From an uncultured Pseudomonadales bacterium (lineage in GTDB: Bacteria; Pseudomonadota; Gammaproteobacteria; Pseudomonadales; UBA7434): a stretch of 64,000 bases of DNA. Position 1 is the first letter of the stretch. Each line of letters starts with the position of its first letter. The position numbers were made by a program, and so were the translations under genes. The stretch spans positions 44,961 through 108,960 of the forward strand of contig CAJQKT010000023.1 of NCBI GenBank assembly GCA_905478995.1, written 5' to 3'. The notes beneath the pieces are model-generated. The model was not told the origin of the DNA. It was given only the letters and a program-made list of their open reading frames with translations, and made no database searches. This document shows positions 57,822-60,737 of this stretch, in pieces.

Positions 57822-57983
57822 CTACCGCTTTGGTTGAGTATTTTTTTGAATGCCGATAACAAACAGCGCAATGCTGGCACCAGAACAACCGATAGCCACG
57901 CCATAAAAGCCTGGCGAATGGAAGGAAAAACCTAACAGAAAAAATACGAAGGCATTGAGCAGAAGGACAACGCCGACAATCAA
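57822..57983 (-). CDS. Candidate small 2-TM protein (53 aa, TTG/CTG start) missed by the ORF track
   Basis: My own translation of the reverse strand: (M)IVGVVLLLNAFVFFLLGFSFHSPGFYGVAIGCSGASIALFVIGIQKNTQPKR*. It lies 46 nt downstream of the His-rich gene on the same strand. There is no ATG and only a weak, distant GGAAAG. Confidence 0.3.
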   Translation of the reverse strand: MIVGVVLLLNAFVFFLLGFSFHSPGFYGVAIGCSGASIALFVIGIQKNTQPKR

Positions 57984-58029: not shown

Positions 58030-58371
58030 TCAGCCGTTCACTATTTCTAATGGGCCGTGGTCATCGCAATGTCCCTCATGAACATGGTGCAAGCGACCAT
58101 CCACTAAGTAATCTATGTGATCTCCATGCGGCACAGCCTCATGCCCGCAATCCGGGCCGTGTAGATGGCCGTCACAGTCATTTACAGGGCTGCAGTTATC
58201 AGGGTTGGCTTCGCTGACCTCGACAACATGTACATCGCAATGATTGCCGTGAGGGTGGTGTAAATGACTATCCTGTAGGTAATCAACATGACCATTGTGG
58301 CGGATGGCAGTGTGACCGCACCCCGGTCCATGTGTGTGCTCTGTATGTGTATGAGTGTTTGTGCATTTCAT
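58030..58371 (-). CDS. His/Cys-rich putative metal-binding protein with internal tandem duplication
   Basis: 113 aa with no signal peptide. I count 23 His and 7 Cys. The two halves align as HGPGCGHTAIRHNGHVDYLQDSHLHHPHGNHCDVH and HGPDCGHEAVPHGDHIDYLVDGRLHHVHEGHCDDH. AAGGGG precedes the ATG. Confidence 0.8.
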   Translation of the reverse strand: MKCTNTHTHTEHTHGPGCGHTAIRHNGHVDYLQDSHLHHPHGNHCDVHVVEVSEANPDNCSPVNDCDGHLHGPDCGHEAVPHGDHIDYLVDGRLHHVHEGHCDDHGPLEIVNG

Positions 58372-58686
58372 GTGTCACCCCTTGGCTATGGGAAAATTCA
58401 AATCTAATAGTGTATTCAACTACCGCTATCGTTGTTAAGAGGCGCTTTATATTCTGACGACGTTTTTATCCACGAAAAGAAATGTACATACTTTTTAAAT
58501 ATTTATCAAACCATGGTACCTTTTAGTTTTACAAATAATGCGACACTTGGTGTTGATGATTTATTTGTGCCTCATAAGGCTCACCATTGTTTCAATAGCT
58601 TGCGCGCCGTGTCGTTGGAAAGCGAAGCATTGGTAGTTTGTTTGGCATGTCATACTTGGGGTTGGTATAACAAACGTAAAAGGCAA

Positions 58687-58710
58687 CATGTAGTAACCAG
58701 TTACTACATG
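58687..58710. promoter_or_regulatory. 24-nt perfect palindrome CATGTAGTAAC-CA-GTTACTACATG
   Basis: Read directly: 11-bp perfect arms with a 2-nt centre. It lies 93 nt downstream of the amidohydrolase stop and 316 nt upstream of the His-rich gene start. Function (operator or hairpin) is unknown. Confidence 0.5.
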
Positions 58711-58802
58711 CGGATACTACATACGGTTACTAAGATGTCGCGTGAGGTGGCCGAGAAGGGTGACACAGCCTATGTGTGTGATGCAATTGTTAGAGAGCGT
58801 CG

Positions 58803-60737
58803 CTACCCACAAAGTGCCGCTAGGGCTTCAGAGCTGTTTTCTTGACCTTGCATTTTTGCAAGCTCCCACGGGCGCACGCATTGCGCTAGTTTTTTGCACC
58901 ATTGATAGCCGGCCGAACCCATACACCCATGCACATCTTGATCTGAGCCTACTACCGCCGGCGCATCATTGGGGGCTTTGAGTTTAAAGACGGTTTGGCC
59001 ATTATTAATGGTTTCTAGTATTTTTATATCAGCAATAGTTAGCGGATCTACTGTAAGCGGGTTGGCCGATAAGATAACCAAGTCGGCTTGCTTTCCCACT
59101 TCAATCGAGCCCTTCTGATTTTCTTCAAAGTGCTGATAAGCAGGCCAAATCGTAATGGCCTTTAAACCCTCATAAGGTGTCACTCTTTGGTCGGGCCCAA
59201 GCACTTCACCGGTGCGGGTGACTCGCGTGACGGTAGCCGACAAAACACGCATAGAATCGGGGAGTGCAACGGGTGCATCGTGGTGTGAAGTGAAAATTAA
59301 GCCGGCATCCAGTACATCGCGTGTGGGTGAGATATAGGCGGCTCTTTCAGGGCCTAGCACTGACGTCTTATGCCATTCGCCCCAGTAAAAGGTATGCATA
59401 GGAAACAACGAAGGAATAATATTCAGCGCTTTTAACTGGGCAATTTGATCTTTACGCAACGTTTGGCCGTGAATCAACACGACCCTGCGATCGCCAGTAC
59501 CGTATTGTTGACTGGCTTTGGCGATGGCTTTTATATAGAGGTCAATGGCCGCATCACCGTTACAGTGCGCAAGAATTTGCCGGTTGTTTTTAAAGGCATC
59601 CATAATTTCGGCGTCTACCTGCTCAACGCTCATGGCGGGATAACCCGCATAGTCGTTTGATTCGCCCTCGGGAGGCACATGATAAGGCTGCGTCAGCCAA
59701 GCGGTTTTACCCTGCGGTGAGCCATCTAGGGTTAATTTAAGCCCAGCTATGCGCAAACCGTTGTTATAGCCAATGCCTTGGTAACCATTGCCTGTGTAGT
59801 AGGGCGAATCGGGGAGTTTGTTTTTAGCGGTGTAGTCAACATATAACGCAACGTCTATCGGTAGCGGGCCAAGGCTTGCTCGAGCCGCGGCAACCATTAC
59901 CGTTGAGTCGAATGCTCTACCTTCTTGCGCAGTTGTGTAACCAAAACGAGCAAAACTTTGCATGCCCTGATTAAAAAGTTCAATGTTGTAGTCATCGTCA
60001 ATACCCGATTGAAAAGAACCTAGCGCAGCAAAAAATGCATTTTCTTCTAGTACTCCATTGGGCGTCTTTCCATCGGGCTGGCAGCGAATTTTTCCGCCAG
60101 GAATTATTTTTTGGCAATCGTCTATGCCCGCTATGGCGAGCGCTTTTTTGTTAAATACGCCAAAGTGAGCAGACTGATGAATAATCAATACGGGCCTCTC
60201 GGTGCTCACGCTATCTAATTCATCCGCGGTCGGAAATACCTGCTCGCTTAGTTGCGAATCATCAAAGCCAAAGCCCAATATCCAGCCCGTATTGGCAATG
60301 AATTTTTTGCCTGTGTCGCTGGTTTGCCATGCTTTAAGTGTATCGAGCAGTTCAGCAAAGCTATTGACTGGGCCGTCGGGCAGTGGCAATAGGTTGGCGC
60401 TGGCTGCCTGTATACCGGCACTAACAACATGGCCATGTGCATCAACAAAACCCGGCACCATGGTGCGATTGTCAAGGTCTACCTGTTCGGTAGCAGGGCC
60501 TACAAAGCGCTTCGCACCAATGTCATCACCCACGTAAATGATCTTTCCGTTTTTAATGGCTACGGCTTGCGCTGAAGGTTGGTCGTCATTGACGGTGATG
60601 ATTGTACCGTTTAAGTAAACCGTATCTGCGGTGGCAGCGTTTGTAGACGGCGCTTGGGATACGGGCGGTGACTTACTTTTGTCGGTACAGCCCATGGTTA
60701 GCAGTAACGTGCACAGTGTTAAGAGGATGAGTTTCAT
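58803..60737 (-). CDS. Amidohydrolase-family (YtcJ/Amidohydro_3-like) lipoprotein with extra Cys-containing C-terminal module
   Basis: Lipobox LLLTMGC; metal-binding motif PGFVDAHGHV; later HCNGD and HHDAP blocks. The 47-aa tail DQDVHGCMGSAGYQWCKKLAQCVRPWELAKMQGQENSSEALAALCG contains 4 Cys. Confidence 0.85.
   Translation of the reverse strand: MKLILLTLCTLLLTMGCTDKSKSPPVSQAPSTNAATADTVYLNGTIITVNDDQPSAQAVAIKNGKIIYVGDDIGAKRFVGPATEQVDLDNRTMVPGFVDAHGHVVSAGIQAASANLLPLPDGPVNSFAELLDTLKAWQTSDTGKKFIANTGWILGFGFDDSQLSEQVFPTADELDSVSTERPVLIIHQSAHFGVFNKKALAIAGIDDCQKIIPGGKIRCQPDGKTPNGVLEENAFFAALGSFQSGIDDDYNIELFNQGMQSFARFGYTTAQEGRAFDSTVMVAAARASLGPLPIDVALYVDYTAKNKLPDSPYYTGNGYQGIGYNNGLRIAGLKLTLDGSPQGKTAWLTQPYHVPPEGESNDYAGYPAMSVEQVDAEIMDAFKNNRQILAHCNGDAAIDLYIKAIAKASQQYGTGDRRVVLIHGQTLRKDQIAQLKALNIIPSLFPMHTFYWGEWHKTSVLGPERAAYISPTRDVLDAGLIFTSHHDAPVALPDSMRVLSATVTRVTRTGEVLGPDQRVTPYEGLKAITIWPAYQHFEENQKGSIEVGKQADLVILSANPLTVDPLTIADIKILETINNGQTVFKLKAPNDAPAVVGSDQDVHGCMGSAGYQWCKKLAQCVRPWELAKMQGQENSSEALAALCG

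Follow-up and report, generated by a model that had tools for sequence, protein, structure and literature searches.

A duplicated histidine- and cysteine-rich protein

The stretch analysed here (the window, 64,000 nucleotides of contig CAJQKT010000023.1 from an uncultured Pseudomonadales bacterium) carries on its minus strand a small gene for a histidine- and cysteine-rich protein of 113 amino acids. The gene and the parts of its product are the following.

58030-58371, minus strand: coding sequence of the 113-residue His/Cys-rich protein, stop codon included (open reading frame (ORF) listing and translation)
58378-58383, minus strand: Shine-Dalgarno sequence AAGGGG, 6 nt from the ATG (58371-58369), read directly from the sequence
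58228-58338, minus strand: repeat 1 (residues 12-48), motif HxHGxxCGHxAIxHxxHxDYLxDxHLHHxHxxHxDxH, delimited by self-alignment (z = 15.7), conservation and the AlphaFold2 (AF2) model
58168-58227, minus strand: linker (residues 49-68), with invariant N56-P57 and C60 conserved at 88% (alignments)
58057-58167, minus strand: repeat 2 (residues 69-105), the better conserved copy, HGDHxDYLVxGRLHHxHxxHCDDH

The protein contains 23 histidines (20% of its residues), 7 cysteines, 12 aspartates and 13 glycines, its histidine runs never exceed two residues, and the G+C content of its gene is 51%, compared with 48% for the whole window. A THTHTEHTH head occupies residues 6-14, and the cysteine-containing linker sequence NPDNCSPVNDCDG corresponds to residues 56-68. 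The N-terminus shows neither a hydrophobic stretch nor a signal peptide, and the protein is cytoplasmic. A gap-free alignment of the two halves covers 46 residues, 23 of them identical, with a BLOSUM62 local score of 147, against 36 ± 7 (maximum 66) for 2000 shuffles preserving the composition of each half; with z = 15.7 in this comparison, the repeat therefore reflects homology and is no artefact of histidine richness, and the two halves of about 37 residues represent a genuine homologous duplication. A first-pass annotation made from the letters alone had described the ORF and its composition, the good Shine-Dalgarno sequence, the normal G+C content, the tandem duplication, the head and linker and the cytoplasmic location, and our analysis bears it out on each of these points.

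A large family without a name

Judged by its sequence, the window protein is a member of a large unnamed family defined by the tandem domain HxHGxxCGH...HGDHxDYLxxGxLHHxHxxHCDDHG: the homology spans the full length, the ligands are conserved in both repeats and all columns that are near-invariant in the family are present. A protein database search retrieved 3,578 homologous clusters at 90% identity (E ≤ 0.001), the 120 best matches showing 59-79% identity at a query coverage of 81-100% (mostly 95-100%), and an exhaustive profile search brought the family to 1,190 representatives at 50% identity. All homologues are labelled either “hypothetical protein” or with the propagated UniRef name “Threonine dehydratase”, which we take to be erroneous. 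The exact window protein occurs in 217 blocks of a public assembly collection, and the four contigs examined are ENA and JGI metagenome assemblies; the source is therefore a commonly sampled environmental bacterium.

The hosts of the family include Alpha-, Beta- and Gammaproteobacteria (Microbulbifer, Colwellia, Vibrio, Photobacterium, Shewanella, Pseudoalteromonas, Neisseria, Kingella, Lautropia, Bradyrhizobium, Brucella, Burkholderia, Achromobacter, Pseudomonas and Mannheimia), Bacillota (Pediococcus, Lentilactobacillus, Enterococcus, Priestia and Planococcus), Actinomycetota (Streptomyces, Rhodococcus and Rubrobacter), Chloroflexota, Acidobacteriota, Verrucomicrobiota, Planctomycetota, Myxococcota, Bradymonadia and one spirochaete. 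They are marine, soil, oral and food bacteria, and copies also reside on plasmids and mobile elements. Outside bacteria, the domain is present in Amoebozoa and giant viruses.

No match was found in Pfam, NCBIfam or PDB sequence searches with either the single sequence or the profile, up to E = 10, so the earlier statement that the protein fits no named family stands. Specifically, Metallothio_Pro matched neither the window protein (hmmscan, E ≤ 10) nor any of 108 relatives (E ≤ 5), and a Pfam scan detected PF04270 in none of these proteins. When the 108 relatives were compared with Pfam at E ≤ 5, 20 families were matched, those to EutQ, DUF3659 and DUF3658 being all sub-threshold; we read these three as similarity of a β-hairpin or of composition and reject membership in the respective families. 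The cupin family EutQ (PF06249) was hit below threshold by 30 of the 108 relatives (best E = 8.8e-4) but not by the window protein, and scored 14.5-16 bits in three individually examined relatives against a cut-off of 21. These matches span just 22-39 residues of repeat 2 (profile positions about 72-114) and stem from the hairpin D-x-[IV]-D-Y-[LV]-x-x-G-x-L-H-x-x-H (e.g. P0306 58-96, P0336 71-100, P0353 75-96). The likeness is probably convergent, a remote origin from a cupin hairpin being also conceivable.

Conservation of putative metal ligands

Conservation was computed on an alignment (A4) of 108 sequences from Proteobacteria and Bacillota. Conserved at 93-100% are H12, H14, C18, H20, H25, H28, D30, H38, H39, H41, H44 and D46 in repeat 1, and H71, C75, H77, H82, D84, H85, D87, H96, H98, H101, D103, D104 and H105 in repeat 2. 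Of the seven cysteines of the window protein, only C18, C75, C60 and C102 are conserved in the family, the last two at 88% and 80%, respectively. Each protein thus has about 26 near-invariant His, Cys or Asp positions, with a spacing that is fixed across phyla. Two positions alternate between His and Cys: position 48 (58 His and 49 Cys, plus one Arg) and position 69 (57 His and 41 Cys, plus nine Glu and one Val). Swaps between His and Cys at fixed positions are typical of metal ligands. A loss of the His/Cys positions among homologues, named in the first-pass annotation as telling against metal binding, is not what the 108-sequence alignment contains: the positions are kept.

Predicted structure

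With an alignment of 36 close homologues, AF2 yielded an uninformative model (predicted local distance difference test score, pLDDT, of 59), and with 108 sequences including Bacillota-type homologues the model reached a pLDDT of 87.2 and a predicted template modelling (pTM) score of 0.79. The latter model is all-β, each repeat being predicted to form a four-stranded antiparallel β-meander with two-residue turns.

Repeat 1, predicted strands (AF2): residues 21-25, 28-33, 36-41, 44-48
Repeat 2, predicted strands (AF2): residues 78-82, 85-90, 93-98, 101-107

These confidence values and the invariant ligand spacing agree with the previous argument for a defined fold rather than a low-complexity sequence. 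A Foldseek search of the model against 350,542 PDB chains gave no match at E ≤ 0.001, and the predicted fold is probably new. From the count of conserved ligands (about 26), roughly six tetrahedral metal sites would be predicted.

An SmtB-like regulator as the recurrent neighbour

Gene context was studied in 80 species-representative genome loci, out of at least about 578 matching genome loci, by clustering all ORFs within 6 kb on either side and by a Pfam scan of the immediate upstream and downstream genes. The sole recurrent neighbour among these loci is a gene for an ArsR-family regulator, which adjoins the homologue upstream on the same strand in 17 of the 80 loci and lies near it in two more (tblastn). 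Three Bacillota or plasmid cases add to these 19: a conjugative plasmid of Pantoea ananatis and plasmids of Pediococcus damnosus associated with beer spoilage carry the same pairing, and in an Enterococcus gallinarum element arsR is divergent from the homologue. Homologues linked to arsR include WP_072015868 of Pantoea and WP_062904319 of Pediococcus. The pairing spans Proteobacteria, Bradymonadia, Planctomycetota and Bacillota; as ArsR genes are few per genome, adjacency in more than 20% of loci across four phyla represents a strong association.

Among solved structures, the Salinisphaera partner is closest to SmtB, which represses the metallothionein gene of cyanobacteria (1r1t, E = 2e-16); the α5 ligands D104, H106, H117 and E120 of SmtB have D, H, H and E as their aligned counterparts in the partner. 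Of the 20 partners checked, 19 have the full α5 motif DxHx10Hxx[H/E], as does the one from Enterococcus (20 of 21 altogether). A review of 2024 describes this motif as that of a canonical Zn(II) sensor (PMC11672702, section 3.2.2.1). In 11 of the 20 partners helix α3 has CV[ST]E or CVGD, many of these proteins also having an N-terminal CxHxH, an arrangement that resembles the second (α3N) site of SmtB. The palindrome ATTCYA-N8-TRGAAT, searched for with up to one mismatch, occurs 15 times in the 1.0 Mb of loci, 13 of the sites being located directly before arsR; we predict it to be the expected autoregulated operator of a two-gene operon comprising arsR and its target.

Fusions of the domain to regulators and transporters

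The domain is also found as a part of larger proteins. It is joined to an ArsR helix-turn-helix domain in P0126 (Rubrobacter-like, from several independent contigs) and P0255, to the C-terminus of an ABC-3 (ZnuB-like) permease in P0159, and to a Cys-rich, metallothionein-like segment in P0230. The ArsR fusions of 239 amino acids have an internal methionine at the usual start of the domain protein, and these ORFs may yield two separate products instead of one fusion. In a giant-virus metagenome-assembled genome the domain lies N-terminal to a CDF zinc transporter (Cation_efflux and ZT_dimer), with an hhalign probability of 98.4% and E = 7e-15; repeat 2 is retained in this protein, and the top BFVD Foldseek match is a CDF protein of Yasminevirus annotated as “cation efflux”.

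L097:3968-5260, plus strand (contig IMGVR_UViG_GVMAG-M-3300023112-4_000001): CDF fusion of 431 amino acids with its own GHSHSGHSHSGHSH loop

In eukaryotes, C2H2 transcription factors with the domain at the C-terminus occur in Physarum polycephalum (P0136) and Cavostelium apophysatum (P0192), and related eukaryote-like metagenomic proteins of this composition are P0129, P0146, P0148, P0158, P0188, P0233 and P0264. The amoebozoan and related proteins combine three to four canonical C2H2 fingers with the C-terminal domain and may be metal-responsive transcription factors. A search with the amoebozoan domain for further eukaryotic architectures retrieved just 23 bacterial-type matches. Every fusion partner is expected to vary in activity with the zinc level of the cytosol. 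In the CDF protein of giant viruses and in a single bacterial permease, the domain takes the very place of the histidine-rich cytosolic loops and tails of CDF/ZnT, ZIP and ZnuB-type transporters; such loops, however, are usually short and disordered, whereas the domain is predicted to fold independently, is conserved and is mostly a free protein.

Possible function of the protein

Metal binding appears to be by far the best reading of the His-to-Cys swaps, the SmtB-type operons and the fusions to CDF, ZnuB-like and ArsR proteins and to a Cys-rich segment. The explanation we prefer, with confidence that is about evenly balanced, is that the protein would bind Zn(II) in the cytosol at high capacity and so buffer or sequester it. 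In function it would correspond to the cyanobacterial metallothionein SmtA, to which its histidine-dominated fold is unrelated. A zinc buffer is the probable role because relatives share operons with SmtB-type sensors or form single proteins with zinc transporters and regulators. Of the two roles offered in the first-pass annotation, metal buffer or metallochaperone, the SmtB link favours buffering or sequestration, and a delivery chaperone is less favoured.

In the mechanism we envisage, each unit of about 37 residues would fold as a four-stranded β-meander, and several tetrahedral metal sites would be built from its His, Cys and Asp side chains, which alternate and amount to about 13 conserved ligands in a unit and about 26 in the protein. 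The gene stands second in a two-gene operon, behind an SmtB-like ArsR with the α5 motif, in about a quarter of the genomes; the apo-repressor would bind ATTCYA-N8-TRGAAT before the operon, zinc excess would release it, and the His-rich protein would accumulate and take up the surplus zinc. Attached to CDF exporters, a ZnuB-type permease or transcription factors, the domain would be a cytosolic module presumably binding or sensing zinc. A store that is filled in zinc excess and drawn on in scarcity may be an alternative.

Going a step further, and more tentatively, we suggest that the domain may be an unrecognised, autonomously folding and ancient modular zinc-binding or zinc-sensing domain with a new β-meander fold, existing both as a free histidine-based “metallothionein” and as a module recruited by transporters and regulators. 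In such a scheme, the free protein of thousands of bacteria would be under SmtB-type or other zinc sensors, and the domain would have been recruited as a zinc-sensing module in CDF exporters of giant viruses, ZnuB-type importers, ArsR proteins and amoebozoan C2H2 factors. If this is true, the family would fill a gap in the cytosolic zinc buffering of many bacteria without classical metallothioneins, a process that is, to our knowledge, poorly understood in such bacteria. The family is a candidate, open to direct testing, for a second class of zinc-sequestering proteins in bacteria, one based on histidine. Possible uses would include a portable zinc-sensing domain and, in metal biosensing or bioremediation, a simple cassette of sensor, operator and effector. 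Proteins that sequester metals in the cytosol under the control of a sensor are already known as a kind; new here would be the family itself, along with its probable fold, the reliance of its chemistry on histidine and the way in which transporters and regulators reuse it as a module. The genomic associations of the family (SmtB-type sensors, operator, fusions) consistently point to zinc handling, and all functional statements about it, from metal binding and zinc as the physiological metal to induction by metal excess and a buffering role, are comparative inferences from sequences.

Several observations weigh against a zinc buffer under SmtB-type control. The homologue is mostly solitary, in about three quarters of cases (Vibrio campbellii, Microbulbifer and Neisseria subflava being examples), and in the 64 kb of the window we found neither an ArsR, ZntR or Zur homologue nor a copy of the ATTCYA-N8-TRGAAT operator. 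The α5 site serves Co and Ni sensors too, and the protein could prefer Ni, Co or Cu(II). A full-text literature search returned no paper on the family and no experiment on any of its members, an absence that is no proof. Finally, some contexts are those of zinc scarcity: Zur-like (Fur/Zur-family) genes are located within 6 kb in five of the 80 loci, among them L052, where such a gene is the divergent neighbour, and L043, where zur is divergent to the arsR-target pair; a copy in Paraburkholderia adjoins a znuABC-like metal ABC transporter operon, including a zinc substrate-binding protein, and a GTP-binding gene; and in Neisseria sp. 83E34 (L031) an exact Neisseria-type Zur-box-like palindrome, TGTTATGTAATAACA, is found at about -87 from the ATG.

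The scarcity contexts lead to the alternative that the family might be a zinc-starvation protein, that is, a Zur-controlled cytosolic reservoir or metallochaperone serving client enzymes in a role like that of COG0523 or ZigA partners, which we consider unlikely. It would also accommodate the ZnuB-like importer permease that carries the domain, the isolated matches to ZnuA and to DUF1826 among the immediate neighbours, and a version of the Neisseria box with two mismatches, TGATATA(N)CGTAACA, kept at a fixed position of about -118 in the following other Neisseriaceae loci.

L038, L039, L042, L047, L048, L059, L065, L066, L068, L069, L073: TGATATA(N)CGTAACA at about -118

However, the dominant and phylogenetically broadest link is that to SmtB-type sensors, which derepress in metal excess, and the fusion to a CDF exporter likewise suggests the handling of excess. 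The box in L031 sits just upstream of the predicted -35 hexamer, a position that also fits activation by Zn-Zur, and no Zur-box-like site is present within 250 nt upstream of the gene in the window. The window protein differs from COG0523/CobW proteins in having no P-loop GTPase domain with a CxCC motif, for which an all-β model of 113 residues leaves no room; no CobW or other Pfam domain was detected in it.

A further possibility, which we regard as rather improbable, is that the domain is primarily a regulatory module that senses zinc, its metal-dependent folding or docking modulating the ArsR, CDF, ZnuB or C2H2 partner, with the free protein acting in trans. It would account for the fact that all fusion partners are regulators or transporters expected to respond to cytosolic zinc, and the in-frame ArsR-domain fusions, which recur in several contigs of the P0126 cluster, suggest a physical interaction by Rosetta-stone logic. 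Yet most members are solitary and lack a fixed partner, about 26 conserved ligands far exceed the need of a sensor, and the internal methionine of the 239-residue ArsR fusions permits two products.

We give still less weight to an Hpn-like function in which the protein would store or detoxify nickel or cobalt specifically. The histidine content of 20% would suit such a role, the ArsR partners also match NmtR (2lkp, E = 8e-10), and α5-like sites sense Co and Ni in some ArsRs (PMC11672702). Against it, the families listed for the immediate neighbours include no urease, hydrogenase, Ni-enzyme maturation, Ni/Co transporter or RcnA-type gene, the transporter fusions are all of the zinc type (CDF with ZT_dimer, ABC-3), and the solved structure most closely related to the sensor is that of SmtB, which senses zinc. 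Like Hpn and Hpn-like proteins of Helicobacter pylori, which are believed to store or buffer divalent metals, the protein is cytosolic and very rich in histidine. Hpn proteins are low-complexity sequences with His and Gln runs, known only from Helicobacter; the present family, in contrast, has a fixed spacing across phyla, a confidently predicted fold and no His run longer than two, and nickel-enzyme genes are absent from its recurrent neighbours. The earlier comparison with Hpn, ZnuA loops and COG0523 is no more than an analogy. Ni-enzyme maturation genes are missing from the families listed for the two immediate neighbours, and a GTP-binding gene, possibly COG0523, is located about 4 kb from the homologue in the single locus L084.

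Comparison with other metal-handling systems

The closest parallel to the preferred zinc-buffer reading is offered by the bacterial metallothionein SmtA/BmtA with its repressor SmtB (Synechococcus). It is likewise a small cytosolic protein with Cys and His metal ligands, and in many genomes, though not in the window, the His-rich gene adjoins one for an SmtB-like regulator with a complete α5 site and a palindromic operator; the expected logic, derepression by zinc followed by sequestration, would be the same by analogy. There is, however, no sequence kinship, as indicated by the absence of any Metallothio_Pro match mentioned above. SmtA has 9 Cys and 2 His, the Zn4 cluster of metallothioneins being dominated by Cys (about nine, with two His, in a protein of about 55 amino acids), whereas the His-rich protein has 7 Cys and 23 His in 113 amino acids and is predicted to be an all-β tandem repeat. 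Moreover, smtA and smtB are divergent, and the His-rich gene mostly follows arsR in one operon.

The polyhistidine-triad (Pht) proteins of streptococci (PF04270) also take part in zinc homeostasis through tandem zinc sites on short β-strands, and their triad HGDHYHY resembles the HGDHxDY of the family, which is followed by xxG. The third histidine of the triad is nevertheless replaced by Asp in the His-rich protein (HxxHxD versus HxxHxH), Pht proteins are surface-exposed and the His-rich protein is cytosolic, and the PDB Foldseek list of 50 matches, all of them weaker than E = 0.001, contains no Pht structure. The copper storage proteins (Csp) and MymT are, similarly, dedicated cytosolic sequestration proteins, sometimes under a metal sensor (PMC11672702), but in them Cu(I) is bound by Cys-thiolate four-helix bundles or by small peptides rich in Cys, unlike the His-rich protein with its all-β model and its link to zinc sensors.

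The gene neighbourhood in the window

The surroundings of the gene in the window comprise the following features.

58803-60737, minus strand: Amidohydro_3 gene, the upstream neighbour on the same strand (Pfam)
58686-58711, minus strand: terminator-like hairpin with an 11-bp stem downstream of the amidohydrolase gene, its function being putative
58481-58509, minus strand: sigma-70-like promoter candidate TTGATA-17 nt-TACATT, about 100 nt upstream of the ATG (pattern scan)
57822-57983, minus strand: ORF of 53 amino acids, hydrophobic, with two predicted membrane-spanning stretches, starting 46 nt after the stop codon of the His-rich gene

That the His-rich protein is a dedicated metallochaperone for the adjoining binuclear-metal amidohydrolase, as the first-pass annotation had proposed, is very improbable: the two genes do adjoin on the same strand, the enzyme is a metal-dependent Amidohydro_3 protein and conspecific strains share this arrangement, but the tie between chaperone and client is unsupported because the enzyme bears a lipoprotein signal peptide (LTMGC) and is therefore exported to a compartment other than that of the His-rich protein, and because the adjacency is found in none of 80 other genomes (L002 and L029 carry distant amidohydrolases several kb away), the 431-nt gap between the genes moreover containing the terminator-like hairpin and a separate promoter candidate. 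The amidohydrolase has a C-terminal extension of about 45 residues with four Cys (…HGCMGSAGYQWCKKLAQCVRPW…ALCG), its Pfam domain ending at residue 584.

Sigma-70-like sites are no more numerous in the region than in shuffled sequence, and TTGATA-17-TACATT is a putative promoter. In the divergent strain L092, its -35 hexamer lies within a perfectly conserved 15-nt block and a TAATTT -10 is kept, the intergenic region being otherwise about 75% identical. A 22-nt palindrome over the candidate -10 (58475-58496) was considered as an operator and rejected, as it is not kept in L092. When positions 58030-58430 of the window are compared with L092:2950-3342, the coding sequence and about 55 nt upstream of it are 100% identical at the nucleotide level and the adjoining intergenic sequence is about 75% identical, which suggests a recent recombination tract or a sweep; since the whole coding sequence is identical as well, the 55 nt before the ATG were not accepted as a regulatory footprint. 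No Rfam element was found around the gene.

No terminator is evident between the His-rich gene and the 53-residue ORF, which is called as a gene in a strain variant and is possibly co-transcribed. It has no relative in 84 homologous loci (tblastn) and no Pfam match, and was dismissed as a conserved partner of the family, not being conserved beyond the species. The window gene thus appears to be either monocistronic or paired with this ORF, behind its own sigma-70-like promoter candidate. Nothing connects the remaining neighbours with metals; they encode an SMR transporter, an XRE regulator, a PAF-AH-like hydrolase and an anthrone-oxygenase-like membrane protein. Neither the amidohydrolase nor the PAF-AH-like, anthrone-oxygenase-like or SMR genes adjoin homologues elsewhere and can count as conserved neighbours, the exception being an SMR gene about 4 kb off in L001.

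Other arrangements among homologues

Some loci show arrangements of their own. In L052, from a Verrucomicrobiia metagenome-assembled genome, the intergenic region that separates the homologue from the divergent Fur/Zur-family gene contains a 15-bp palindrome without mismatches, TGCAAGTGACTTGCA, some 80 nt upstream of the former. In Achromobacter, Burkholderia and Pseudomonas oryzihabitans (L053, L056 and L060), the sequence TTGAC(T/A)-19 nt-T(G/C)(A/T)AAT, located about 40-75 nt upstream, includes an imperfect dyad, ACTCTCTAG...CTTCAGGGT; its 19-nt spacer is reminiscent of promoters of the MerR/ZntR/CadR type, and no MerR gene was found nearby in these three loci. Three to four tandem copies of CACATCACTTTTT occur directly before the ribosome-binding site, about 20-70 nt upstream, in Microbulbifer agarilyticus (L013) and are degenerate in L014. 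In Priestia flexa (L085, 4054-5339), where there is no ArsR gene, the homologue follows, on the same strand, a protein of 221 amino acids with a B12-binding domain and an ORF of 76 amino acids. On plasmid p1 of Cupriavidus sp. KK10 (L082, 2500-9700), a record with three protein matches, the homologue is situated between two identical copies of an insertion sequence and a divergent arsenic-resistance cluster consisting of arsR, a glyoxalase-like gene, two arsC genes and a gene for an aquaporin-like channel.

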